A stretch of 64,000 nt of DNA from Candidatus Nomurabacteria bacterium RIFCSPHIGHO2_02_FULL_42_19 (GTDB lineage Bacteria; Patescibacteriota; Minisyncoccia; Phycocordibacterales; UBA9973), in the NCBI GenBank assembly GCA_001785615.1, contig MFUG01000013.1, forward strand, positions 11,006-75,005, written 5' to 3'. Every line of letters begins with the position of its first letter. Within the stretch, counting starts at the first letter, position 1. This document shows positions 431 through 56,021 of this stretch, piece after piece. The position numbers were made by a program, and so were the translations under genes. The notes below the pieces were generated by a model. It saw only the letters and a list, made by a program, of their open reading frames with translations, was not told the origin of the DNA and did not search any database.

Positions 431-1900
431 TTAGTCCTTGCGCAAAAATAACGGCTGGTCGGGTTTTTTGTTTTCTTTTATCAGTTTTTTAAGCAACTCA
501 TTAGTGCTAGGCATTATCGGATTTAGCATTCTAGCTATTTTATACAAGCGGATAACAGCGGAAGAAATTAATTCTTTCCCCTTTTTTTCGTCTACTTTTA
601 TAACCTTAAACGGTTCCGTTTCTTGAATAAATTTATCAAGTTCACTGATTTCTTTCCAAGTAAAATCCACTGCTTTATTAATTTCAAATTTATCCAAGTA
701 ATCTTTCCATTCTTGCGGGATAGAATGCTCTGGAATTTCTGGACACTTGTTTAAATACTTCTCGGATAAAGTTAAAATACGACTTACCAAATTCCCCAAC
801 CCATTTGCCAGATTCGCATTGTATGCCTCTTTAAACCTTTCCATAGTAAAAGGACTGTCTTCAAATGAAGAAATCTCACGCAAAAGAAAATAACGCAATG
901 CGTCTGTGCCATATTCTTTTACAACTTCTATAGGATCTATGCCATTCCCTAGGGATTTAGACATTTTTATTCCGCCCTCGCCGGTGATAAAACCGTGATA
1001 AACAATTGTGTCTGTAGTTGGCATTCCAACCGACATCAACATTCCCTGCCACATTACGGATTGGAATTTAACCATGTCTTTCCCAGCTATCTGAATTTTT
1101 TCTCCATTGACCCAGAACTTTTCAAAAAGACCCTCCCCTCCTGCCAGAGGAGGGGAGAGGGGATGGTGGGAGTCGGGCCAGCCCAAGGTGGAAAGATAAT
1201 TTACAAAAGCGCCAAACCATACATACATTACTTGGGCATCGTCCCCTGGTATCGGCACCCCCCAGGAAAAGCGTTTCTTGTCGCGGGAAATAGAAAAGTC
1301 CTCCATGCCTTCGGATACGAAATCAATTGCTTCACGCCGACGCCACTCTGGAAAAATTGCTTTTTCTTTTGCGAGATAATCTAAAAGCTGCTTTCTGTAA
1401 TTTGCTAATCTAAAAAAATAATTTTCTTCCTCCACCATCTCGGGCTTTTTATCCGGATGAAGTGAGCATTTTCCTTCCATTAGATCTTTTTCAGTAATAA
1501 ATTTTTCACATCCTACGCAATAAAGCCCTCTGTATTTTTTTTTATAAATATCACCCTTAGCGTCACAAAGACGCCAAAATTCCTGCGCTGCTTTCACGTG
1601 TTCTCCGCTTGTGGTTCTGATAAAATTATCGTAGGAGAGATTTAACACATCTTTCAGGCCCAGAAACTTCTCTGCATAAAAATCCACATAACTTTGCACA
1701 TCCTTGTCTTCCTTTAAACTTCCCTCCCAGATTTTTTGACCATATTCGTCTGTGCCAGTACTGAAAAATACATCGCGTCCTACTAGCCGCTGATATCGTG
1801 CCATCGCATCCGCTTGCACAAGCTCAAGCGCAAAGCCAATATGAGGATCCGCATTCACATATGGAATCGTGGTCGTAATGTAAAAACTATTTTTTTTCAT
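431..1900 (-). CDS. metG: Methionyl-tRNA synthetase
   Basis: Class I aaRS with the P-Y-V-N-A-D-P-H-I-G-F HIGH-type motif, KMSKS (KMSKSLGN) and a Zn knuckle (CVGCEKF). Confidence 0.9.
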   Translation of the reverse strand: MKKNSFYITTTIPYVNADPHIGFALELVQADAMARYQRLVGRDVFFSTGTDEYGQKIWEGSLKEDKDVQSYVDFYAEKFLGLKDVLNLSYDNFIRTTSGEHVKAAQEFWRLCDAKGDIYKKKYRGLYCVGCEKFITEKDLMEGKCSLHPDKKPEMVEEENYFFRLANYRKQLLDYLAKEKAIFPEWRRREAIDFVSEGMEDFSISRDKKRFSWGVPIPGDDAQVMYVWFGAFVNYLSTLGWPDSHHPLSPPLAGGEGLFEKFWVNGEKIQIAGKDMVKFQSVMWQGMLMSVGMPTTDTIVYHGFITGEGGIKMSKSLGNGIDPIEVVKEYGTDALRYFLLREISSFEDSPFTMERFKEAYNANLANGLGNLVSRILTLSEKYLNKCPEIPEHSIPQEWKDYLDKFEINKAVDFTWKEISELDKFIQETEPFKVIKVDEKKGKELISSAVIRLYKIARMLNPIMPSTNELLKKLIKENKKPDQPLFLRKD

Positions 1901-1903
1901 TCG

Positions 1904-2995
1904 TTATTTATCGTTGGTTTTGGTTAAAATTTTACGTTTCTCAATATCATTCGAGAGCTCCACTACCAGAATAGACAAGGGAATCGCCAATACTACTCCC
2001 CAGAAAGAGGCAAGTTCAAAACCAATTAAAGCGGCAAGAATTATGACGATAGGTGAAAGCCCTACCACTTTTTTGATAATTAAAGGAGCAAAAAGGAAGA
2101 CCTCAAATTGATGCACAATCAGGTAGGCCCCAGTTACCATTAGCGCGCTGCCAAGACCGCCGGAAAGATAAGAAAAGGAAATAGCGGGTATCAAAGCGAC
2201 GAGAATTCCATAGGGGATGAGTTCCATTATGCCGGCAATAATAGCCAGGAGCAGGGCATACTGTACCCCTAACAGAGAGAGCGTCAGATAAATCAGAACA
2301 CCGACGACCAAGCCAAGCAGAAGCTGACCCTTAACCCATAAAGCAATTTTGCGACTGGAGCGATTCCATAAATCCACCACATAATCCTCGTGTTTTATGG
2401 GTAAAATAACTCTTAAAAAATTTTCTATCCCTCTTTCTTGAATTGAAAGATAAAAAGAAATAAGAATAATCATGCCTACGTTGAAAATACTGCCGAAGGC
2501 CACGGAAAGTGTTTGGAAAAATCCACCGGAGAGATTTTCGATGAAGGCCTTGGACACCGCAGTCAGCGATGAAAACGATAAATTGTGTGATAAATTTGCG
2601 ACAATATCTTTGGCTCCAGAGAAGGCCTCGTTTTGAAAATAATTTAAAAAGTACACACCGGGAACGTAGGAAGAAAGGGCCGAGGAAAAATTATAAACTT
2701 CGGTGATTAAAAGTGGGGCGAAAAGATAAAATATTCCAGCCAGGGCAAGGATGGATACAGCGTATAAAAGAACTATGCCGAAAATTCTGCCGATTTTTAT
2801 TTTGCGGAAGTGAGGAACCGCTGATTCCACGAAAGAGGCAATGATAATAGAGGTTAGAATAATAAGGATTAGGTCTCGTAAGAACCAAAGCAAAAAGATG
2901 CCAAGAAGAACCAGGGCAGCTCGAACCATTGTCCCGGTAGTTATGGAAAAATGGGCTACATCATTTCTTTCTTGCATAGGAACATAATACCACAA
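1904..2995 (-). CDS. AI-2E (PerM/UPF0118) family membrane transporter
   Basis: 363 aa, about 8 TM helices. The hydrophobic pattern and length match AI-2E family permeases. No catalytic motif. Confidence 0.55.
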   Translation of the reverse strand: MWYYVPMQERNDVAHFSITTGTMVRAALVLLGIFLLWFLRDLILIILTSIIIASFVESAVPHFRKIKIGRIFGIVLLYAVSILALAGIFYLFAPLLITEVYNFSSALSSYVPGVYFLNYFQNEAFSGAKDIVANLSHNLSFSSLTAVSKAFIENLSGGFFQTLSVAFGSIFNVGMIILISFYLSIQERGIENFLRVILPIKHEDYVVDLWNRSSRKIALWVKGQLLLGLVVGVLIYLTLSLLGVQYALLLAIIAGIMELIPYGILVALIPAISFSYLSGGLGSALMVTGAYLIVHQFEVFLFAPLIIKKVVGLSPIVIILAALIGFELASFWGVVLAIPLSILVVELSNDIEKRKILTKTNDK

Positions 2996-3020
2996 ATATT
3001 ACAGATGAAAAGCAAACAAA

Positions 3021-4289
3021 CTAAAACTTTAGTTTTCTCAAAAACTTGGATTTTTTCTTAAAAGGTCCAATGAGCGCCAGATTAAGTTTGTTATTCTTGA
3101 AAATGTGCTGGGCTAGAGTTTTTATTTGGCTAGCGGTAACACGGCGTATTTTATCTATTTTGTCTTCTGCATTTTTTGTTTCGCGTTTTAATAGTTCCTG
3201 CCCTCCATAAAAATTGGCGATGTCATCAGTGGACTCAAGCGAGAGCTTCAGGTTGCCTATCAGGCATTCTTTTACCTTATTTAATTCTTCCTCTTCTACT
3301 TTGTAAATTTTTAGCTTCCGACATTCCTCTAGTACTGCCTTTATCACTTCGGCTATCCTTTTATTATCCACTCCGGCAGAAATTTGAAAAAATCCGTGGT
3401 CAGTATAAGCGTCGTTATACGCGCGAACATAATATCCTACTCCCATCTCCTCGCGTAATTTTTGAAAAAGTCGGGAGCTCATTCCGCCACCCAAAATTCC
3501 GCCTAATACTGAAAGTATTGCGCTTTTTTTGCTAAACAAATCATGGGTGCGTACGCCCAACACGAAATGTGTTTGGTCTGTTTTCTTGAATTTAACTAGG
3601 GCGCATGGCTTTTTCTGTATTTCTTTCACTTTAACTTTTTTTGCTTTTTTCCCACGGGAAACATTATCAAAAATCTTTTTTATTTCTTTCAGCACTTCCT
3701 TTTCATTCACCTGCCCGACCACTACGATCACCGTGGCCTCCGGTAGATAGTGCTCTTCTTTATAGCGCACAAAATCATCCCGTTTCATTCTGAAAATATT
3801 TTTTTTAGAACCGGCAATATTCCAGCCCGCTGGCTGATCGCCATAAAGTAGTTTCATGACCAGGTCCTGCACATGTCGGTTCGGCATATCTTCATACATA
3901 TTTATCTCTTCAATGATTACTCCTTTCTCCTTTTCTATTTCTTGTTCTGGGAAAGTGGAATTAAGATAGACATCTGAAACAACATCCAGAATTTGCTTAA
4001 AATGCTTCGCATCGGACTTGGCATAGTAACCTGTATATTCTTGGGCGGTAAAAGCATTATATTCACTCCCTAGGGCGTCTAATTCTTTGGAAATGTCTAT
4101 CGCTTTGGGCCTGCGGAGTGTTCCCTTAAAACACATATGTTCTAAAAAGTGGGAGATGCCGTTTAATTTTTTCGTTTCGTACTTGCTGCCCGCTTCCACC
4201 AAAACCAAGACCGTCACCGTCGGATTATCCTGCATCGGAATAGTTACCACCCGCAGTCCGTTTTTAAGAGTTGTTTTTGAGAATCCCAT
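3021..4289 (-). CDS. M16 (pitrilysin/insulinase) family zinc peptidase
   Basis: Inverted zinc-binding motif HFLEH (HxxEH) near the N-terminus. 422 aa with the M16 two-lobe layout. Confidence 0.8.
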   Translation of the reverse strand: MGFSKTTLKNGLRVVTIPMQDNPTVTVLVLVEAGSKYETKKLNGISHFLEHMCFKGTLRRPKAIDISKELDALGSEYNAFTAQEYTGYYAKSDAKHFKQILDVVSDVYLNSTFPEQEIEKEKGVIIEEINMYEDMPNRHVQDLVMKLLYGDQPAGWNIAGSKKNIFRMKRDDFVRYKEEHYLPEATVIVVVGQVNEKEVLKEIKKIFDNVSRGKKAKKVKVKEIQKKPCALVKFKKTDQTHFVLGVRTHDLFSKKSAILSVLGGILGGGMSSRLFQKLREEMGVGYYVRAYNDAYTDHGFFQISAGVDNKRIAEVIKAVLEECRKLKIYKVEEEELNKVKECLIGNLKLSLESTDDIANFYGGQELLKRETKNAEDKIDKIRRVTASQIKTLAQHIFKNNKLNLALIGPFKKKSKFLRKLKF

Positions 4290-4367: not shown

Positions 4368-4970
4368 CTAACAAGGTAGGTTAAAAACTTCTCGAATGCG
4401 CCTATCATTTTCAATACTGTCAGCAATAACATAGAGGAGATCCTTGCCAATTTTAAAGTCTGCCTTGAGAAGCATTACCAGATCTTCGCAGTCGTAGGGG
4501 AAAATCCACACACTATCTTGTAAATAATGAAACCCGATTTGCTTAAGTGTGCTACGTATTTTTTCACGCGTATTTTTTCTTTTCTCTTTTACGTCAAATA
4601 TAAGCATTCTCCACTTCCCATCCCAGCGCCTTGGCCTCTCGAATTGATAATCCTTTAATTCAAATTGGCGAAGCTTCGCCTCTCCTTTTGGGGTCAAACG
4701 AGCGAAGGTTCCATTTTCCGTTTGCTCAAAAATTATCAATCCTTCATTTTTTAGCCTATTCCAGGATCGATTAACAGAATATTTACCGAATTTATTCTTC
4801 ATAAATTGCGGCTCGATTTGAGCTAGAACTTTCGTCATCTTTGGGGCTACTAAAGCAACACTCAACCCACCCAAGGCAAATACTGTGCTTAAAATTGCCT
4901 TTTGAATATTTGCCTTTTTTGAGCGTTTTCTTGAAGCTTTTTCTAACTGCCCCATGTAATCATAATACAC
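4368..4970 (-). CDS. PaaX-like small protein: N-terminal winged-HTH-like region plus C-terminal Cas2/VapD-like motif. Paralog 1 of 4
   Basis: C-terminal motif WRMLIFDVKEKRKNTREKIRSTLKQIGFHYLQDSVWIFPY follows the Cas2 pattern hhYD-x-R-R-x-L-x-G-x-Q-SVF. Paralogous to 17789..18352, 9235..9708 and 27139..27636. Alternative start GTG at 4970 or ATG at 4955. Confidence 0.5.
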   Translation of the reverse strand: MYYDYMGQLEKASRKRSKKANIQKAILSTVFALGGLSVALVAPKMTKVLAQIEPQFMKNKFGKYSVNRSWNRLKNEGLIIFEQTENGTFARLTPKGEAKLRQFELKDYQFERPRRWDGKWRMLIFDVKEKRKNTREKIRSTLKQIGFHYLQDSVWIFPYDCEDLVMLLKADFKIGKDLLYVIADSIENDRRIREVFNLPC

Positions 4971-17788: not shown

Positions 17789-18352
17789 ATGAGTCAAAAT
17801 ATTAAACGGCTAGGGACTACGCAACGAAAGATTCTTCTGCTTCTTCTGGCAGGGCTCGCGTTGGGTTTAACCAGATCGCCGAAAAAGCATTGGTGGATTT
17901 TAAAACAGATACCGAAAGAATGGAAAAAGATAAACCGACAAGCCCTGGAGAGGGCGATTAATTCTCTTTATGTTTCTCATCTAGTGCAGAAGGAACAACA
18001 CAGAGATGGCACAACCACTTTTGTCTTGAGTGAAAATGGTAAACGAAGGGCCTTGCGATTTAATATCGATAAGATGGAAATCAAAAGGCCGGGTAAGTGG
18101 GATAATAAATGGCGAGTGGTGATGTTTGATATTCCAGAAAAATTAAGGAGGTTGCGAGATTCTTTACGTTTACATTTCCGTGAAATAGGTTTAATTGAAC
18201 TCCAAAAATCAGTTTTTGTATATCCTTATCCATGCAGTAAGGAAATCGAGTTTATCTTGGAATTCTACAATACAAGAAGGCATGTGCGTTTTCTCTTGGT
18301 CGAAAAGATAGATAATCAGCTTCATTTAATGAAAAAATTTAATCTGTGTTAG
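17789..18352 (+). CDS. PaaX-like small protein (wHTH + Cas2/VapD-like motif), paralog (subfamily A)
   Basis: C-terminal motif WRVVMFDIPEKLRRLRDSLRLHFREIGLIELQKSVFVYPY. Aligns with 4368..4970 (RP-KWD-KWR...FD...Q-SV...PY-C). Confidence 0.5.
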   Translation: MSQNIKRLGTTQRKILLLLLAGLALGLTRSPKKHWWILKQIPKEWKKINRQALERAINSLYVSHLVQKEQHRDGTTTFVLSENGKRRALRFNIDKMEIKRPGKWDNKWRVVMFDIPEKLRRLRDSLRLHFREIGLIELQKSVFVYPYPCSKEIEFILEFYNTRRHVRFLLVEKIDNQLHLMKKFNLC

Positions 18353-47988: not shown

Positions 47989-48162
47989 ATAGAGGATTTT
48001 AGGGCCCTGCCCCGCACCAAGTTGTAAACTTTGGTATGGGGTTGCTCTTGAAATCCCCTTGATATATAATGCAGGAGAACTACAAAGGTAGTAATTTTAT
48101 AAGCAATTGGCCTCCGCCACGGCGGGGCAAGGTCGAGATATTACAAAAATCACTAAAAATAT

Positions 48163-48435
48163 ATGAATAAACAAGCATTAGCGGAGTGGGTACACGGAAA
48201 GCTTGGCGGTACAAAGGTCCAAGCAGAGGAAATCGTCGACGGATTGTTTGGCGCTATCATTGATACCTTGAAAAAGGGCGGTGAGGTCTCAATCGCCGGC
48301 TTCGGAATCTTTTCCGTAAAACAGAGAGCGGCTCGCATGGCTCGCAATCCAAAGACCGGAGAGCAGGTCAAAGTAGCAGCCAAGAAAGTTCCAAAATTCC
48401 GAGCAGCCAAAGGTTTGAAGGACACGATTGCCTAA
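48163..48435 (+). CDS. hup: DNA-binding protein HU
   Basis: 90 aa with the beta-arm motif GFGIFSVKQRAARMARNPKTGE. Confidence 0.9.
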   Translation: MNKQALAEWVHGKLGGTKVQAEEIVDGLFGAIIDTLKKGGEVSIAGFGIFSVKQRAARMARNPKTGEQVKVAAKKVPKFRAAKGLKDTIA

Positions 48436-48470
48436 ATTTCTGTTCGCCTCTGGCGGATTCTCTCGATATA

Positions 48471-48500
48471 AAAACAAAACCCCGAAAGGGGTTTTGTTTT
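48471..48500. terminator. Bidirectional rho-independent terminator between hup and lexA
   Basis: aaaacaaaaCCCCgaaaGGGGttttgtttt. Perfect GC stem flanked by A- and T-runs on both strands. Confidence 0.85.
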
Positions 48501-48515
48501 GGAATTTATAAAAAT

Positions 48516-49082
48516 TTAGTATTTCCTAATAACCGCTTTCAAAACCGCGATCACATTTAAGCTATGCTCCGGGTATATCGGCTTGTAGTTCTCATTGGCT
48601 GGTTCTAGCCAGGCCTTACTCCCTTGTTTACGAAAATATTTCATAGTGTACTCGCCGTCCACTTCCGCTATTACAATTTGCCTATCACGAGCCGTGTTGC
48701 ACCGCTCCACTAGCACCATATCTCCCTTTTCTATGTGCGCGTCAATCATGGAGTCCCCATCCACCTCCAACATGTATGTAAATTCTTTCTTGCCTACCAG
48801 CATTTCATCCAAGGAGACAGTGTCCGCCAATTCTTCATCTACCGTAGCTGGCAGTCCCGCTGTTACGAGCCCGAGCATCGGCACTTCCCCGAAAGAGTCC
48901 GTGGGCACTAGCCGGCCCAAGTGATCCTTCTCCACCAGCCCTGCCTCCACCATCTTCCCCACAATCTTAAAAACGGCATTCTTGGATTTGAAACCGAAAA
49001 TCCTCAGCATCTCCGAATATGTCGGCATACGATTTTCTTCTTTATAAAATGACTCTATCTTGGTCTGGTAAGGACTACGCAT
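48516..49082 (-). CDS. lexA: LexA-family SOS repressor (S24 peptidase)
   Basis: N-terminal wHTH and C-terminal self-cleavage domain. Catalytic Ser in GDSM and Lys in MKYFRK. Ala-Gly cleavage site VTAG. Confidence 0.85.
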   Translation of the reverse strand: MRSPYQTKIESFYKEENRMPTYSEMLRIFGFKSKNAVFKIVGKMVEAGLVEKDHLGRLVPTDSFGEVPMLGLVTAGLPATVDEELADTVSLDEMLVGKKEFTYMLEVDGDSMIDAHIEKGDMVLVERCNTARDRQIVIAEVDGEYTMKYFRKQGSKAWLEPANENYKPIYPEHSLNVIAVLKAVIRKY

Positions 49083-49290
49083 AGATGTTTCGAATATCCT
49101 TACGGAAGAATAAGTGAATCATTCTTTGCGCGAAACTCTTGCGATTCAGATAGCGCATGCGGCGAAGCATGAGGCGGTGGTCTCGAGCTTCCCTGCTATA
49201 ATTCTCTCCGCGTATTATTTTATGATCAATAATTTTATTGATCTTCTGTATCTCCTTCTCTAACATTTTTAAGTATTGTGATTGTGACAT
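49075..49290 (-). CDS. Small basic protein co-transcribed upstream of lexA
   Basis: 71-aa ORF overlapping the lexA start by 8 nt. Lies directly downstream of the SOS promoter. No motif recognised. Confidence 0.4.
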   Translation of the reverse strand: MSQSQYLKMLEKEIQKINKIIDHKIIRGENYSREARDHRLMLRRMRYLNRKSFAQRMIHLFFRKDIRNIYA

Positions 49291-49347
49291 ATATTTTAAA
49301 AAGCTGATAGCTATTAGCTAACTAGCTGATTAGCTTGTAATCTATTT

Positions 49348-49377
49348 AGTATAAGTGAACGAGCGTTCACCTGTCAA
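49348..49377 (-). promoter_or_regulatory. Sigma-70-type promoter (TTGACA-N18-TATACT) with a LexA/Cheo-type SOS box (GAAC-N4-GTTC) at 49355-49370 embedded in the spacer
   Basis: Minus-strand reading is cagTTGACAggtgaacgctcgttcacTTATACTaaat. The 16-bp near-palindrome gtgaacgagcgttcac fits the Gram-positive-type LexA box consensus CGAACnnnnGTTCG. Confidence 0.75.
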
Positions 49378-49489
49378 CTGCTAAGCTGTGGATAACTCCG
49401 ACGCCCATTTATAGGGTCGGAGTCCGACTTTTTACGTCGGACTAATTATTCACCCTTCGACTATGCTCAGGATCTAAGCGACCTTCGGC

Positions 49490-49828
49490 CTATACTGTAT
49501 GGCTTCTAGAATATGACTGGCTCTGTGCAACCAAAGCAAAAAGCATGAAATATTTTTCCAAATCCTTAAAGTCGCTTTTATATTCTGTGCCACCGAGCAC
49601 TGCATCAGCAAAAACTTCTCTGGCGCGGTCAAGTTCTAGGCGGCGGTTGCTCCAGCGCCTATCAGCTTGAGTAAGGTCGAATAAATCCATGGCCCGAGTT
49701 ACCGCTCCCCAAAAAGAGTCCTCATCTTTACCTCGCCATTTAGCAGCGCGACCTACTTCGCTTCCGATATTGCCAAGCTGTTCGGCTAGTGTAAACGATT
49801 GCCATTTTTCTTTTGAAACAGTTGCCAT
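49490..49828 (-). CDS. Hypothetical protein P2 in the comM-3'-end insert
   Basis: 112-aa ORF, relatively GC/Ala/Arg-rich. Its last ~12 codons read through a duplicated comM 3'-end remnant in another frame. Confidence 0.4.
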   Translation of the reverse strand: MATVSKEKWQSFTLAEQLGNIGSEVGRAAKWRGKDEDSFWGAVTRAMDLFDLTQADRRWSNRRLELDRAREVFADAVLGGTEYKSDFKDLEKYFMLFALVAQSQSYSRSHTV

Positions 49829-49831
49829 AAT

Positions 49832-50179
49832 TTATTGAACCAATCTACTGATAATTTGGAGAATTTTTTCCTTGATTTCTTCACTTTCTACATCACGGGT
49901 TCGATTCCCCAAATTCGGTTTCAGGTTTATCATTGAGTCAAACTCAATAAAATCATCCCCGGTCTTCTCTAAATATAAGTTTATCCCCCAAGTATCTTCT
50001 CCCTTTGAACTTTCCTTTTCAATTAATAGAGATTGAATATCTACATGTAACTCTCCGCCGACTCCCATAATTCTCTGTTTTATATCAACAACTGCTTTTA
50101 TGATATCGCCATACTGTTCGTGAGCCAGAGTTTTGAGCTCAGTTCGACTTATTTTATCTTTTATAATTTTAGTTTCCAT
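49832..50179 (-). CDS. Hypothetical protein P1 in the comM-3'-end insert
   Basis: 115-aa ORF directly downstream of comM and co-oriented with it. No motif recognised. Confidence 0.4.
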   Translation of the reverse strand: METKIIKDKISRTELKTLAHEQYGDIIKAVVDIKQRIMGVGGELHVDIQSLLIEKESSKGEDTWGINLYLEKTGDDFIEFDSMINLKPNLGNRTRDVESEEIKEKILQIISRLVQ

Positions 50180-50194
50180 AATCTTATTTTAGCA

Positions 50195-51766
50195 TTAATT
50201 GTTCACTTTCGGCCTATACTGGATCGCTTCGAGGATGTGGTTGGCTTTAATCTCTGGAGAGCTTTCTAAGTCGGCGATGGTGCGGGCAATTTTGATGACT
50301 CGGTGGTAGGCGCGGGCGGAGAGTGCTAAGCGCTCGGCGCTATTGTTTAAAAGCTCTTTAACGTCCGGCGAAAGTGGCGCAAAAATGCCCAAATCTTTTG
50401 CATTCATATCGCTATTTGTTTTTAGTTTTCTTTTGCTATTTAAAAATCTTTTTTCTTGAATGAGTCGCGCGGCCTTGACTCGATCTTTTATCGTGTGTGT
50501 TCTCTCACTTCGGACAACTTCATCGCTTAACTTTTTATAGTCCACATTCCCGACAGTCACCCATAAATCTATACGATCTATAATCGGCCCCGAGATTCTA
50601 CGATTGTATCTTTCTAGATCGTTTGGGCGACAAATACAAACTTTATCTTTGTTACCTCTATTCCCGCACGGGCAGGGATTCATTGCGGCGACTAAAATAA
50701 AATTAGACGGAAATATCGCCGAGCCTCGCGCTCGAGAAATAGAAACAATATTATCTTCCAGTGGCTGACGAAGCGCCTCTAGTACCCTTTTTTCAAATTC
50801 TGGGAATTCATCTAGAAAGAGCACGCCTTTGTGCGCCAACGTCACTTCCCCGGGTTTTGGATTTGATCCACCGCCGATCATCGACACATAACTCGCAGTA
50901 TGATGTGGCGCGCGAAATGGTGGCTCGGTGATAAGCGCATCTTCTAGTAATCCTACAATAGAATGAATGCCGGTAATTTCTAAAATGTCATCATTGCCAA
51001 GCTCTGGTAATATGTGTGAAAATACTCTGGCGAGCATTGTCTTGCCAGTGCCCGGCGGTCCCGAAAGCGCAATGTTGTGCCCACCCGCCGCCGCTATCTC
51101 AAGCCCACGCTTCGCAGACTCTTGTCCCTTAATATCAGAAAAGTCCACATCGTGAGTCTTGTCTTTACGAATTATTTCTGTTGGTTTTTGTGCTAAAATT
51201 TTTGGACGTTCTTTTTCCATCGGATTTCCTTTTCTATCTAAATGTATTTTAGAGACATGATCAATAACTTCCTTTAATGTTTTCGCGCCATAGATCGTAA
51301 TACCAGGCACCAATGCCGCCTCCTGCGCATTCATCACCGGCACAAAGATTTCTTGGAAACCCAGTCGCATCGCTTGTTCGGTGAGTGGTAGCACTCCTTT
51401 GATGGGCTGAAGTTCGCCATTGAGAGCAAGTTCTCCTAAAAATATTTTTCCCTTGGGGTCAAAATCTATTTCCTCGCCCGAAAGTAAATATGCGAGCGCA
51501 ATTGCCAGATCAAAATATGGACCTTCTTTCTTTAAGTCTGCCGGCGAGAGTGATATGACTATTTTTTGATTTTGATTTTTGGGAGATTTGAAACCAGAGT
51601 TCTTTAGCGCGGAACTCATGCGATCTTTTGACTCATCCACCGCTTTATCAGGAAGTCCGACCAGAGTAAAAGCATGCAATGTTTTCTTCGTAATATCGAC
51701 TTCTATCGTAACAATTTTACCCTTCAATAGATGCGTCTGCGCGGAATATACTCTTGAAAATGACAT
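50195..51766 (-). CDS. comM: YifB/ComM-family Mg-chelatase-like AAA+ ATPase
   Basis: N-terminal Lon-protease-like domain. AAA+ Walker A GPPGTGKT, Walker B LFLDEFPEF, C-terminal Mg-chelatase domain. 523 aa. Confidence 0.85.
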   Translation of the reverse strand: MSFSRVYSAQTHLLKGKIVTIEVDITKKTLHAFTLVGLPDKAVDESKDRMSSALKNSGFKSPKNQNQKIVISLSPADLKKEGPYFDLAIALAYLLSGEEIDFDPKGKIFLGELALNGELQPIKGVLPLTEQAMRLGFQEIFVPVMNAQEAALVPGITIYGAKTLKEVIDHVSKIHLDRKGNPMEKERPKILAQKPTEIIRKDKTHDVDFSDIKGQESAKRGLEIAAAGGHNIALSGPPGTGKTMLARVFSHILPELGNDDILEITGIHSIVGLLEDALITEPPFRAPHHTASYVSMIGGGSNPKPGEVTLAHKGVLFLDEFPEFEKRVLEALRQPLEDNIVSISRARGSAIFPSNFILVAAMNPCPCGNRGNKDKVCICRPNDLERYNRRISGPIIDRIDLWVTVGNVDYKKLSDEVVRSERTHTIKDRVKAARLIQEKRFLNSKRKLKTNSDMNAKDLGIFAPLSPDVKELLNNSAERLALSARAYHRVIKIARTIADLESSPEIKANHILEAIQYRPKVNN

Positions 51767-51777
51767 ATTGTCTCATA

Positions 51778-52134
51778 TTAACCTTCTAGATGTTCTTTGC
51801 AAGTTCGCGCAGCTGGATTCGCCTCTAAACGATCATCTTCAATATCTTTTTTACAAACTTCGCATTTACCAAATGACTCGCGATTTACACTTTTGAGCGC
51901 CCGCAAAATATCATTCAGTCGGGGCGCCAAGGTCTTAATCATAGAACTCTTTGCTTCAAAATCCTCGAACCTGTCCGCCATTTCATTCGGGTCCGCCTCC
52001 GGTGTATCTTGTTCTTCTGGCGTTGCTTCCCATTCCCCTGTTTCTGGATTGAGCTTGCCCATGTCCCTCAATTGTTCAAGTAAAATATCTCTTTCTTTTT
52101 CCAGTTTCTCTTTGATTTTCTTCTTATCCAACAT
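51778..52134 (-). CDS. DksA/TraR-family C4 zinc-finger protein
   Basis: C-terminal CEVCKKDIEDDRLEANPAARTCKEH (C-x2-C...C-x2-H/C) after an acidic helical region. Confidence 0.7.
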   Translation of the reverse strand: MLDKKKIKEKLEKERDILLEQLRDMGKLNPETGEWEATPEEQDTPEADPNEMADRFEDFEAKSSMIKTLAPRLNDILRALKSVNRESFGKCEVCKKDIEDDRLEANPAARTCKEHLEG

Positions 52135-52384
52135 GCCCGTATGATAGCATGCTTTATTTTAATAGCAATGAACCAGTATTGCTATTATTCCCAATTACAT
52201 TGGCCCAAGTCCGGTCTGCAACTCTTATGATGGGGATTTCAATTGCATAGATCAAGAACCGAACCTGTGCCCGTATATTTCATTAGAACCCCAAGACGGA
52301 GAAGCGACTGAGAGCGGCTTTAGTAAAAATCCGAATGGTTTTCTTGCTCGTGGCCTCCTAAATAGACCAGATGATGAGGCAGAT

Positions 52385-54778
52385 GTGTGGACTCTTTCGG
52401 TTCAATCTCCCTGCTTTGAAGGGGAGTGCCCGGCGGACTATGACGAAAACATAAACGGGACGCCACTTCCGCAGGCCGACAAGGGTAAAACATTTAAATG
52501 TAATTTGTTCGTGGAGTCAGATGAAATCCCGGAGATCGTCCGTTATTTTGCTCCCGAAAAAGCCCTGGCCGACGACGCACAGAATTCCATAGAAATTTCC
52601 GCAGTATTTACGGGGGGAACTGACACTTGCACTACTGACTGTTTTTCCAACGTACTTTTTTTACCGGGGATAAAGGGAAGCGTTTTAAAAAAGAGTGCGG
52701 ATACTCTCTGGCCGCCCACTGTGTTTAGTTTCAACGACATAGAGCAACTGGCCCTGACAGACGAAGGCGAGAGCGAGTACAATATTTATACCGACGGCAT
52801 TTTAAACAAATTCATTACCACTCCAATTTATGAACCCTTTTCAGATTTTATGGACGGTTTAATTTTGCAAGAACTGATCAATGAATGGCTGCCTCTCGCC
52901 TACGACTGGAGATTTTCTCCAAAAAAAATTCTGCAGGACGGCATTAAAACACAAAGCGAAGTCCTGAATGTGATCGATGAAATAGAAACTTTGGCGATCA
53001 ACTCCAAAACCGGCAAGGTAATCATTGTTGCGCATTCAATGGGCGGGTTTTTTGGGAAGGCAATAATAAAAGAACTGGAAAATCGCGGAGAGAGTGGTCT
53101 AATAGATTCTTTCGTAATGGTGGGCGTGCCTCAACTAGGAACTCCTCAGGCAACAGCTGCCATGTTGCACGGGGATGACGAGGGAATTGTAGCCGGGCTA
53201 GTTGTCAACGCTTCTGAAATGCGGGCCATCGCGCAAAATATGCCTAGCGCCTACAACCTCCTTCCTTCCCCGCAGTACTTTGATCAAGTATCAGACCCAG
53301 TTATTAAATTCGATCCAACTAAACCATTCACAGAAGCATGGCGAAACCTTTGGGGAGAAACTATCAATACTTATAATAATTTCTTTTCATTTTTGATTGG
53401 AGCAGACGGACGTAGCAGACCTGCCGAAAATATATTGCAGATCCCGGAAGTCCTCCGAGGGGATCTAATGCTTTCTGTAAAAAATTTCCATGATGAATAT
53501 GATGATTACCAATTCCCAACCGGCATTCGTGTTGTTCAGGTTGCTGGATGGGGTCTTCCAACAACAAAAGCCGTTAATTACACAACTAAACATCCATTGC
53601 AAAATTTTGGCTATGAAACAATTCCTACTCGCGAGGGTGACAGAACTGTAGTTTACCCCAGTGCAATCTCTTCTGATGCGGATGAAACATATTTTTTTAA
53701 TGTTTTCGAATTTAATAAACAATTGAATTCTAACGCGCAACACCGTGACCTTTTAAGCACGAATGCAATCCAAGATTTAATAGAATCTGTAATAAAGAAT
53801 GAAGATATCTCTAGCACAAATTTTATTTTTAATACAAAACCAGTACCAATAGATCTCGATGATCAATTGGTGGTAAGTACCAATTCCCCGGTCATTCTTG
53901 GCGTATACGATCAGTCCAGGAATTTTACCGGTGTTGATCCGAACCAGGATCTCTCAGCTGATATTTTAACTGTTGAGGAAGGAATTCCAGGAAGTACTTT
54001 TCTTTACACCAGCGAAGGCCAACAAATATTTCTTCCGAAAGAAGGGATTTATTATTTTACTTACCAAGGTGTCGGTAGCGGTCCAACCACTGTTGAAATT
54101 GAAAATTTCACAGCCGATACCGTGCTCCCGATAGTTTCATATACAGATATTCCAACCACCCCGGATACTGTTGCAAATTTTACGGTGGAAAGCGATGTCC
54201 CAGAGAATACAGTTATAGAACTTGATACTGATGGCAACGGAGCGACAGACGAAACAATTGATTCAGACAATTACGAACCCTCGCCAAATGAACTCCTTAC
54301 TCTTATCAAAGAAAAAATATCTGCCCTTAATATTAAAAACAATCTCAAGAAGAATCTTCTGAAGAAAATCGCCGGGCTTGAAAAGAAAATTGAGAACAAA
54401 AAGCAGAGGAACCTTAAAATACTTGCGGGTCTTGAGAAAAAAATATCCAATCAAGAAATAAAGGGAAAGATAAATTCTCTTGATGCCAACGAGATTATCA
54501 GCTTGCTAAATGCCCTTGAAGCGGAAGCGGAAAATATCGCGCTTGACTCCTCTATAATTACCGACTTAAAAAACAAAATTCAAACTTTAGCTATTACTGA
54601 TGGCCTAAAAAATAGCTTGCTGAAACAAATTGAACGTCTTGAAAAGAAAGAAGTACTCATCAAAACCCTGGCTAATTTATCTAAAAATATAATGAAGAAA
54701 GCCGAAAAAGGCAAAGTGACCGATGCGGATGCGCAAATGCTTATTGAATTGCTTGGTCAGATTGAAAGTGTGATATAA
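52385..54778 (+). CDS. Alpha/beta-hydrolase lipase/esterase (class-2 lipase / LCAT-PGAP1-like nucleophile elbow) with a long C-terminal coiled-coil repeat region
   Basis: Nucleophile elbow VIIVAHSMGGFFGK (A-H-S-M-G-G as in Bacillus LipA-type lipases). C-terminal ~170 aa are K/L/E heptad-like repeats (LKKNLLKKIAGLEKKIENKK...). GTG start, no N-terminal signal peptide. Confidence 0.6.
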   Translation: MWTLSVQSPCFEGECPADYDENINGTPLPQADKGKTFKCNLFVESDEIPEIVRYFAPEKALADDAQNSIEISAVFTGGTDTCTTDCFSNVLFLPGIKGSVLKKSADTLWPPTVFSFNDIEQLALTDEGESEYNIYTDGILNKFITTPIYEPFSDFMDGLILQELINEWLPLAYDWRFSPKKILQDGIKTQSEVLNVIDEIETLAINSKTGKVIIVAHSMGGFFGKAIIKELENRGESGLIDSFVMVGVPQLGTPQATAAMLHGDDEGIVAGLVVNASEMRAIAQNMPSAYNLLPSPQYFDQVSDPVIKFDPTKPFTEAWRNLWGETINTYNNFFSFLIGADGRSRPAENILQIPEVLRGDLMLSVKNFHDEYDDYQFPTGIRVVQVAGWGLPTTKAVNYTTKHPLQNFGYETIPTREGDRTVVYPSAISSDADETYFFNVFEFNKQLNSNAQHRDLLSTNAIQDLIESVIKNEDISSTNFIFNTKPVPIDLDDQLVVSTNSPVILGVYDQSRNFTGVDPNQDLSADILTVEEGIPGSTFLYTSEGQQIFLPKEGIYYFTYQGVGSGPTTVEIENFTADTVLPIVSYTDIPTTPDTVANFTVESDVPENTVIELDTDGNGATDETIDSDNYEPSPNELLTLIKEKISALNIKNNLKKNLLKKIAGLEKKIENKKQRNLKILAGLEKKISNQEIKGKINSLDANEIISLLNALEAEAENIALDSSIITDLKNKIQTLAITDGLKNSLLKQIERLEKKEVLIKTLANLSKNIMKKAEKGKVTDADAQMLIELLGQIESVI

Positions 54779-55346: not shown

Positions 55347-56021
55347 ATGGGAAGACCCCAAAGAACTGACGTTGGTGGATATGTGTACCATGTATTAAAT
55401 CGAGCTAATGCTCGGATGACTATATTTAGTAATGATAAAGAATATCAAGGCTTTGAAGCAATACTTTTCGAAGCAATGGAAAAATTTAAGATGAGACTCA
55501 TCGCATACACTCTGATGCCAAATCATTTTCATTTAGTTCTGTATCCAAAATATGAGGGCGAGATAAAAAAGTTCATGCACTGGCTAACCCTTACCCACAC
55601 TCAGAGATGGCATGTATATACAAAAACAATAGGCCATGGTCATTTATACCAAGGAAGGTATAAATCATTTCTAGTAGAAGAGGATTCATATCTATGGGTA
55701 CTGCTTGCGTATGTTGAAAGAAATGCATTACGCGCAAAATTAGTAAAATCTCTCAAAGACTGGAAATGGTCAAGCTATTACAAAAGATTATATGGCACAG
55801 CTCTGCAGAAAAAATTACTGGCCACTGATAGCATTGCTTGGCCTGATAATTACGACAAATTACTTTCTCTAACTGAAGAAAAAGAAAAGTTAGAAACTAT
55901 TAGAAACTCTGTCAACAGAGGAAAACCTTATGGTGGTAATAGTTGGACCGGTAAAGTTTTGAAAAAGTTTGGTTTAGAAATAACAGAAAGAAAGAGAGGA
56001 AGACCAAAAAAAGGTTCCTGA
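55347..56021 (+). CDS. REP-associated tyrosine transposase (RAYT) / IS200-like Y1 HUH transposase
   Basis: HUH motif LMPNHFHLVL and the catalytic Tyr region GRYKSF...YLWVLLAYVERNALRAKLV parallel E. coli RayT/YafM (LPEHMH ... YxxxxDYIxxNPV). Confidence 0.75.
   Translation: MGRPQRTDVGGYVYHVLNRANARMTIFSNDKEYQGFEAILFEAMEKFKMRLIAYTLMPNHFHLVLYPKYEGEIKKFMHWLTLTHTQRWHVYTKTIGHGHLYQGRYKSFLVEEDSYLWVLLAYVERNALRAKLVKSLKDWKWSSYYKRLYGTALQKKLLATDSIAWPDNYDKLLSLTEEKEKLETIRNSVNRGKPYGGNSWTGKVLKKFGLEITERKRGRPKKGS

Follow-up and report, generated by a model that had tools for sequence, protein, structure and literature searches.

A conserved two-gene cassette lies between two copies of the comM 3' end in a Nomurabacteria genome and recurs beside gene-end relics in other Paceibacteria

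Candidatus Nomurabacteria bacterium RIFCSPHIGHO2_02_FULL_42_19 encoded, on contig MFUG01000013.1, a comM/yifB gene whose last codons occurred twice: once as the working end of the gene and again about 0.72 kb further along the same strand, with a cassette of two small genes, P1 and P2, between the copies (Table 1). Positions given here are those of the 64-kb stretch of this contig that we analysed (the window), in which comM, P1, P2 and the second copy of the comM end, hereafter the relic, were all on the minus strand. The ComM protein had the domain content that defines ComM/YifB, with matches to PF13541 (E = 2.3e-36), PF01078 (E = 1.7e-88) and PF13335 (E = 3.6e-28), and was 75-91% identical in amino acid sequence to the products of the 80 Nomurabacteria and Paceibacteria comM loci that formed our comparison set. 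Its C-terminus was encoded as ...ANHILEAIQYRPKVNN, or ...KANHILEAIQYRPKVNN in a longer reading, followed by the stop codon. P1 started 15 nucleotides (nt) after the comM stop and P2 started 3 nt after the stop of P1. The last ~9 codons of P2 (..SYSRSHTV and stop) were an out-of-frame reading of the comM relic, stop codon included.

Positions 50204-50245 of the working end and 49480-49521 of the relic, which continues with A and a stop, agreed at 34 of 42 nt and 13 of 14 amino acids. The local alignment score of the two copies was 26, above every one of 717 comparisons between unrelated upstream and downstream flanks (mean 8.9, 99th percentile 15, maximum 20). Nine nucleotide differences were given for the copies, eight of them at third codon positions, and one codon changed from N to S. 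Both copies contained an exact 14-nt core, CAGTATAGGCCGAA (50208-50221 and 49484-49497), for which the window held no third match even with up to two mismatches (0.22 expected). This core coincided with the conserved QYRPK codons, and the corresponding stretch of a related locus (L081; labels L0xx and L1xx denote related metagenome-contig loci, P0xxx proteins) differed from it at two positions. A first-pass annotation made from the sequence alone had reported the two comM-end copies, their coordinates and reading, and the largely synonymous nature of their differences; it had also described P1 (115 amino acids) and the GC-richer P2 (112 amino acids) as co-oriented with comM and the insert as lacking an integrase. 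All of this was borne out.

Synteny with 23 related genomes placed the insert in a variable gap of an otherwise conserved gene order, dksA-comM-[gap]-orf71-lexA-like-HU-RNase Y. The gap was empty (93-208 bp) in six of them (L007, L009, L011, L013, L019 and L025), while the other 17 carried 0.5-4.8 kb of varied cargo, including NUDIX, CYTH, aldo-keto reductase, HAD and Fic genes. Empty sites consisted of the comM stop, a short 3' untranslated region (UTR), a perfect DnaA box AGTTATCCACAG and the promoter TTGACA-GTGAACGnnCGTTCAC-TTATACT of orf71-lexA. In the window, the relic was followed by the 3'UTR box, two extra hairpins, the DnaA box and the promoter, and the relic with its downstream flank aligned with the native comM end and 3'UTR of L025, L028, L089, L026 and L016. 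Since the relic continued into the 3'UTR, DnaA box and promoter that are seen after native comM, the downstream copy is the displaced resident comM end, and the working end (KVNN and stop) is the one at the junction with the insert. This agrees with the earlier proposal that the duplication is the footprint of DNA inserted at the comM 3' end, with a working end kept beside the insert and the old end displaced. The same annotation had called comM an integration hotspot in other bacteria and suggested looking for empty sites in relatives; the comM 3' flank was indeed hypervariable in this clade, and the six empty sites are those listed above.

Table 1. Features at the comM 3' end, in window coordinates.
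Feature	Position	Strand	Description	Evidence
comM/yifB	50195..51766	-	523 amino acids, competence-associated Mg-chelatase-like AAA+ protein	Pfam ChlI, Mg_chelatase, Mg_chelatase_C
Working copy of the repeated comM end	50204..50245	-	A508..V521, then NN and stop at 50195-50203	
Extended -10-like box	50186..50194	-	TGCTAAAAT, ends 6 nt before the P1 ATG	Left-end comparison
P1	49832..50179	-	115 amino acids, DUF5674 family, GC 34.5%	
P2	49490..49828	-	Open reading frame of 112 amino acids, GC 46.8%	Conserved core is codons 1-~103 (to ~49520)
comM 3'-end relic	49474..49521	-	ASHILEAIQYRPKVA and stop (also written RASHILEAIQYRPKVA and stop), in the comM codon register	
comM 3'UTR box	49443..49473	-	ATCCTGAGC..GTCGAAGGGTGAAT, follows the native comM stop in relatives	Alignment, empty-site sequences
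Two tandem GC-rich hairpins	49397..49442	-		Fold of 49385-49480: -35.5 kcal/mol, z -4.6
DnaA box and promoter of orf71-lexA	49348..49395	-	TTATCCACA (49387-49395, perfect), then TTGACA-18-TATACT	
orf71 and LexA-like S24 peptidase	48516..49290	-	orf71 49075-49290; LexA-like S24 peptidase 48516-49082	Pfam Peptidase_S24, synteny

P1 belonged to DUF5674 (PF18924; E = 6.5e-28, 97.4 bits against a cut-off of 27, residues 5-113 of 115), and P2 is a four-helix-bundle protein of an unnamed family, with no family found in Pfam, NCBIfam, PADLOC or PHROGs. P1 was represented by 1654 database clusters, with 70-94% identity among the matches listed and a mean column identity of 76% in the alignment, and its fold had no neighbour in the PDB but many invariant H, D, E and K residues. 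P2 had more than 580 close relatives of 103-107 amino acids (67-93% identity), and a profile search returned 1172 representatives at 50% identity. In PADLOC the pair had no match, in Pfam only DUF5674 and in PHROGs a best E-value of 0.21; searches of NCBIfam, PADLOC and PHROGs with P1, P2 and orf71 gave nothing useful, and Rfam returned only sub-threshold chance matches on 48000-52500. Neither a PDB sequence search with the P1 and P2 profiles nor Foldseek against viral structures gave a significant match, a scan of viral contigs with P1 gave no relative, and in the searches made neither protein resembled nucleases, transposases or recombinases by sequence or structure. A literature search found no paper naming DUF5674, and another, for Patescibacteria together with target-site duplication, returned nothing relevant. 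The pair is tightly coupled and near-universal in Paceibacteria, and we flag DUF5674 and its unnamed partner, which has more than 1000 representative sequences and no Pfam family.

Scanning metagenome contigs with the P2 profile yielded 80 loci, with P1 directly before P2 in nearly all of them. The two genes were adjacent in nearly all of ~70 further loci (62-85% amino acid identity), and the pair occupied about 35 different neighbourhoods across Paceibacteria. The first-pass annotation had suggested a decayed island, or a toxin-antitoxin or defence pair as cargo. The former does not hold for a strongly conserved cassette present in hundreds of Paceibacteria and in many contexts, and the latter has against it the database results above and an identity of 70-85%, unlike that of patchy defence cargo. 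Instead, the strong conservation together with the housekeeping neighbours suggests a cellular rather than selfish role. In about 55 loci compared at the left end, the only sequence 5' of P1 kept in all contexts was (A)TrTGyTAAGAT or GTATAMT, 6-8 nt before the ATG. This box, so close to the ATG, suggests a promoter borne by the cassette itself, which would give a leaderless or nearly leaderless mRNA. P2 relatives terminate 4-8 residues beyond ..FAL, and the C-terminal tail, which varies, was in several lineages simply the relic read as P2; annotators should be aware that what they call the end of P2 is often the relic of a different gene, read in frame or out of frame. The cassette also decays in places: in L026 (4360-4750, equivalent to L159) and P0119, all that was left of P1 was its first ~17 codons (METRIVKD...), fused to P2, so that P1 is dispensable there.

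The arrangement found in the window was not confined to it. In L081-L086, from Nomurabacteria RIFCSPLOWO2_01_FULL_39_18, dksA-comM-P1-P2 followed one another with the same spacing, and the working end AAAGTGAAYAATTAATGCTAAAATAA, the relic (..AIQYRPKVA and stop) and the junction between P2 and relic were all as in the window, apart from a 7-nt deletion that produced an earlier P2 stop. As L081 has the same junction, the event either predates the species of the window or the whole unit has been transferred; a recent origin in this genome is not supported. The L085 contig (606 bp) likewise had the relic and the P2/relic junction of the window and was identical to 49454-50058 save for 27 mismatches, all confined to 87 nt near the 5' end of P2. 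Either a diverged P2 allele has contributed a short recombination tract there or the metagenome contig is a chimera, and we do not rely on it. The contigs of L081-L084 and L086, although from different samples, all ended ~165-175 nt after P2, which suggests strain-level variation or a repeat just 3' of the relic.

Across lineages, the relics differed in length and boundary (about 8-9, 16 and 31 codons), and the comM-linked cassettes alone showed at least three junction types. In L095 and L093 the comM relic was 31 codons long and ended in KVN and stop; in L092 it comprised ~8 codons ending in KVNS and stop, with the DnaA box directly after it; in L087 it was 51 nt covering the stop and 3'UTR; and in L088 it was decayed. 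No relic was present in L089, L144 and L026/L159, where the cassette was placed after the 3'UTR box. comM preceded the cassette only in Nomurabacteria-like loci; other neighbours were gyrB, prfB-ftsE, ychF, rpsA, mnmA and tRNA genes, with RNase P RNA probably downstream, as read from the GGAAAGTCCG signature. In six loci (L108, L115, L121, L128, L132 and L160) the signature ..GAGGAAAGTCCG lay ~20-60 nt after P2, so that rnpB appears to be the downstream neighbour. Two of the other neighbours had left relics of their own. In L102 and L106 the cassette began 3 nt after gyrB, and a gyrB-end relic (..SNAKK..LDI) lay beyond it; in L117, P0033 and P0116 P2 ran on in frame into such a relic. The L136 cassette interrupted prfB three codons before its stop, so that prfB read through into the cassette, and the native prfB end ..NPNSVLAGDLDDFIDAVQ with its stop lay after P2 as a 47-nt relic.

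We evaluated how often such relics arise by grouping the upstream flanks of the cassette loci into 37 clusters. Eight of these were positive, with relic-positive loci scoring 18-37 against the null maximum of 20, and such scores occurred in at most 0.14% of unrelated pairs; L131 and L118 were the doubtful members of the eight. On inspection L131/L130 proved to contain a 23-nt palindrome resembling repetitive extragenic palindromic (REP) sequences, and L118 a PEP low-complexity repeat, and both are better explained by these sequences than as relics. As a gene control, 1077 crude gene calls were taken from all fetched loci, and flanking repeats of similar score surrounded 2.6% of them. The 12 top-scoring cases were inspected. 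Rather than second copies of an adjacent coding end, they were palindromes of operator-like or REP-like type, found around genes resembling PaaX or Y1 transposases, or intergenic repeats resembling miniature inverted-repeat transposable elements (MITEs); a Fic gene in L008 was the only other gene-end relic to emerge from this control. Among 80 comM loci without the cassette, a comM-end relic occurred in two: L008, where the Fic gene lay between the comM-end copies, and L059, with a 120-nt comM relic and a metallo-beta-lactamase (MBL) hydrolase, a TrmB regulator and one further open reading frame between the copies. Gene-end relics are therefore strongly but not exclusively associated with P1-P2. 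The recurrent pattern is that a near-universal Paceibacteria cassette sits within, or immediately beyond, the final codons of a conserved gene whose old end stays behind, with no recognisable recombinase.

Evidence of movement came from comparing the cassette with comM. In the last 250 residues of ComM, our locus shared 87% identity with L095 and L081 shared 89% with L092, with 72-78% between these two groups (72% between the window and L081). P1 identity, in contrast, was 83% between the window and L081, 72% between the window and L095 and 75% between L081 and L092, and P2 agreed. In a sliding comparison the better partner of our locus changed from L095 to L081 at the comM stop. The working comM end was as diverged from L081 at synonymous sites as the remainder of comM, and the block of high identity common to both loci began only at AAAGTGAAYAATTAA. 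Furthermore, the junction type tracked the cassette and not comM. The conflict between cassette and comM phylogenies indicates that either the cassette with its relic, or comM, crossed between lineages.

Eight ungapped stretches from seven loci contained 49 differences between working end and relic, 34 of them at third codon positions, and the amino acid was changed in 9 of 102 codons. Neutral decay of a duplicate predicts ~46% of differences at third positions, and the observed bias (P = 0.0008) argues against simple decay of a fresh duplicate. The copies behave like alleles that have each evolved as a working gene end, which fits the import of a gene end together with the cassette. A piece of former neighbourhood may also have travelled in L141, where a 5'-truncated second tRNA-Asp (3552-3614, anticodon stem to 3' end) lay between an intact tRNA-Asp and the cassette and resembled not the resident gene but the tRNA-Asp that precedes the cassette by 33 nt in L149. 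The L141 cassette thus appears to have brought along part of the gene that once preceded it, an upstream-side gene-end relic; alternatively, the truncated gene is a decayed tandem tRNA-Asp.

From these observations we infer a pathway of recombination and a direction of transfer, and give about an even chance to a model in which a comM end with the cassette attached was inserted by host recombination and displaced the resident end. A common ancestor of this species and one or more other Nomurabacteria species would have received a fragment comprising the last comM codons, the stop, P1 and P2 into its resident comM. The junction on the P1 side would have become the working end (KVNN and stop), while the resident end and its 3'UTR would have moved beyond P2, where they would persist as an untranslated relic that supplies the P2 stop codon. 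No dedicated integrase would be involved: recombination by the host would have been homologous on the comM side and illegitimate, or guided by short homology, on the other. The most plausible occasion is DNA uptake, followed by insertion-duplication through a single crossover or by an illegitimate event facilitated by homology. In E. coli, a duplicated part of the homologous locus beside an insert was the product of a single crossover with a circular molecule, and true homology-facilitated illegitimate recombination (HFIR) usually deletes recipient DNA (PMC3240628). The unit of comM, cassette and relic could then have passed between related genomes by ordinary homologous recombination, since comM homology lies on both sides of it.

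Several observations weigh against this model. When the 45-nt relic was compared with 104 comM ends, nearest-neighbour assignment could not distinguish an own from a foreign origin, and the same synonymous bias could arise if a true target duplication were followed by repeated replacement of the working comM through allelic recombination. At the comM hotspot relics were strongly enriched for the cassette, accompanying ~6 of 8 cassette lineages against 2 of ~40 other loci. In five or more independent cases the right junction lay no more than about 20 nt from P2 codon 99. Random illegitimate joining would scatter the junctions more widely, so that the element may have a defined end. Crossing over by homology is inefficient when only 25-60 nt of diverged sequence are available, and the natural competence of the host, an uncultured organism, is assumed from comM, which was all that was seen of DNA uptake and recombination functions.

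The tightness of the junctions leads to a less likely possibility, that P1-P2 is itself a discrete new mobile element. It would either be autonomous, P1, P2 or both acting as a nuclease or recombinase of a type not recognised so far, or depend on mobilisation in trans. Such an element would home to the extreme 3' ends of conserved genes, where it would bring a replacement for the gene end or else duplicate the target over long stretches of varying length. Gene-end relics in three essential genes, at least three positions near the comM stop, a left boundary about 22-26 nt before the P1 ATG in most cases, a right boundary at P2 codons 99-106 in most relic-bearing loci and the rarity of relics with other cargo would all fit, as would the many invariant H, D, E and K residues of P1, its fold without a PDB neighbour, the Y1_Tnp-like genes that adjoin the cassette in seven loci, the GIY-YIG gene beside it in one, and a layout that matches the C-terminal replacement made by mobile open reading frames (mORFs; PMC3630166). 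Yet neither protein resembled a nuclease, transposase or recombinase, no terminal inverted repeats were seen, the flanking repeats varied in length from 25 to 63 nt, ~29 of 37 contexts had no relic, and the cassette was not found on viral contigs; the strong conservation and neighbours such as gyrB, prfB-ftsE, ychF, rpsA, rnpB and tRNAs fit a core operon, and a transposon with defined ends would not be expected to drag along a neighbour's piece as in L141. In the most specific form of this idea, a promoter-bearing two-gene cassette with no known recombinase fold would, throughout Paceibacteria, target the final codons of essential genes (comM, gyrB and prfB, and sites beside tRNAs), provide or borrow the end of the gene and turn the old end into a relic, which we think rather unlikely. 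We are equally sceptical that DUF5674, with its novel fold and invariant acidic and histidine residues, would be a candidate DNA-acting enzyme in that setting, in analogy to mORFs. A classical transposon making target-site duplications was rejected as the main reading, given the variable repeat lengths (25-63 nt), the absence of a transposase from the insert and the lack of terminal inverted repeats in the end alignments.

It is improbable, in our judgement, that nothing was imported, that comM-P1-P2 is an old vertical arrangement with later cassette losses, and that the relic stems from local tandem duplication, slippage or template switching. The identical spacing of comM-P1-P2 in several species, the in-place decay of the cassette in the L026/L159 and P0119 lineages and the appearance of both comM-end copies as members of one clade's allele pool speak for this view. 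However, sister lineages have different junctions and relic alleles, the 3'UTR box follows the cassette in the window and L081 but precedes it in L089, L026 and L144, comM and cassette phylogenies conflict, gyrB and prfB show the same phenomenon, and a local duplication does not put two genes between the copies. The integration model of the first-pass annotation, taken here as the remnant of an integrase-mediated element, or as a cis-mobilisable one that uses an integrase encoded elsewhere, with attB in the comM 3' end and the copies as attL and attR, is very improbable. The 3' ends of genes and tRNAs are classical attachment (att) sites, direct repeats with an exact 14-nt core flank the insert, the gene end is restored, the L149 cassette sits shortly after a tRNA-Asp, and an Xer-like tyrosine recombinase adjoins the cassette in L155/L156. 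Against this, the insert contained no integrase and a tblastn search with an Xer-type recombinase found nothing in the 64-kb window, the L081 copies differ inside the core, and a 0.7-kb element of two universally conserved genes is unlike island cargo. Relics of ~9, 16 and 31 codons have no fixed boundary, and their derivation from comM, gyrB and prfB goes beyond what one site-specific enzyme would recognise; varying boundaries, unrelated source genes and the missing integrase together make a site-specific integrase unlikely. Chance similarity or an assembly artefact might be suspected from a short repeat (42-48 nt) in a metagenome-assembled genome, but is refuted by a score far beyond the empirical null, by in-frame, codon-structured similarity and by the same structure in independent assemblies from other samples and species.

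Similar gene anatomies have been described elsewhere. Fungal mitochondrial mORFs (in Allomyces atp6 and in Glomus atp6, atp9, cox2 and nad3) bring in a foreign gene C-terminus, a structure interpreted as horizontal transfer (PMC3630166). As at comM, they comprise a gene core, an inserted C-terminal end, one or more inserted open reading frames and a relic of the native C-terminus, with mostly synonymous differences (PMC3630166), and in the window too the native relic lies 3' of the insert and the working end beside it. Unlike P1 and P2, which resemble no nuclease, an mORF encodes a LAGLIDADG or GIY-YIG homing endonuclease that drives its mobility, and the case described here involves a universally conserved two-gene cassette, a bacterial chromosome and a much shorter duplicated end (8-31 codons). 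Rhs, CdiA and type VI secretion system (T6SS) effector loci carry orphan 3' ends and immunity genes, for which HFIR has been proposed (PMC5361080). There, too, DNA anchored in a conserved upstream part brings a new end and new genes while the resident end persists downstream (PMC5361080), but those loci encode polymorphic toxins under diversifying selection and displace functional modules, whereas here the anchors are housekeeping genes (comM, gyrB and prfB), both ends encode the same peptide and the same cassette is present each time. In Campbell-type insertion-duplication, 109-950-bp duplications of the lacZ end have been seen experimentally (PMC3240628). The insert is likewise flanked by a direct duplication of the shared segment, although the duplications reported here are diverged and only 25-120 nt long, the circular molecule is not known to exist in this case, and exchange would have to take place between species.

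Integrative elements and islands target the 3' ends of tRNA or protein genes and restore the end, and comM is a target in other bacteria. The comM locus resembles their insertion sites in its gene-end direct repeats, intact target and hotspot flank, and differs in having no integrase, variable boundaries, several unrelated target genes and a 0.7-kb insert of core-like genes. Relative to these systems, we regard the locus as a new variant of gene-end displacement. To our knowledge, the small genomes of the candidate phyla radiation (CPR)/Patescibacteria contain few classical mobile elements, and little has been learned about their ways of acquiring and rearranging genes. The comM, gyrB and prfB loci offer a readable footprint of integrase-free insertion, in which a conserved gene receives the insert and is left with a displaced end as the trace. 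If recombination after DNA uptake is the true cause, relics of this kind could serve as markers of horizontal transfer among bacteria that are not in culture; a cassette that moves by itself would be a new type of mobile element.

The DnaA box and the near-consensus promoter that follow the relic formed the right border of the hotspot, an arrangement conserved in all relatives, and occupied the same position in L007, L009, L011, L013, L019, L025 and L092. The window contained just two such DnaA boxes, so this is not an origin cluster. The spacer of the orf71-lexA promoter held the palindrome GTGAACG-N2-CGTTCAC, likely a LexA operator. The two GC-rich hairpins between the 3'UTR box and the DnaA box were unique in the window and absent in empty-site relatives, and are possibly a terminator of comM-P1-P2. 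They might be taken for a remnant of rnpB, which follows P2 in other lineages, but the likeness was confined to a short GTCGGA hairpin.

Small mobility-related genes and repeats were seen around some of the loci. IS200-like Y1 transposase-like genes (PF01797, weak but above the cut-off) adjoined the cassette in L108, L110, L115/116, L128, L132/133, L137 and L148 and were flanked by REP-like palindromes; the window had a Y1-like gene of its own at 55371-55847 (+), 5 kb from the comM end, and in L112 a small GIY-YIG gene preceded P1 by 16 nt. At comM itself, a 65-nt repeat lay on either side of the gene in L013 (5914-5979 and 7709-7774), and a perfect 24-nt palindrome occurred twice 3' of comM in L050 (+36 and +2392 from the comM end). 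In L012 (~1376-3488) a ~95-nt repeat enclosed a 703-amino-acid gene, possibly that of polynucleotide phosphorylase (PNPase). The repeats in L013, L012 and L050 may be MITE-like elements or terminators. The window also contained two PaaX-like genes, at 17789-18352 (+) and 4368-4955 (-), encoding 187 and 195 amino acids; the former had a PaaX_M Cas2-like domain, and the latter was assigned by sequence resemblance only. Each was flanked by its own near-identical 34-40-nt sequence, placed 8-16 nt before the ATG and again right after the stop, which was palindromic at the 17789-18352 gene, and the same layout surrounded homologues in L034, L039, L044, L077 and L112. These sequences could be operators on both sides of the gene, or could delimit a small mobile unit.

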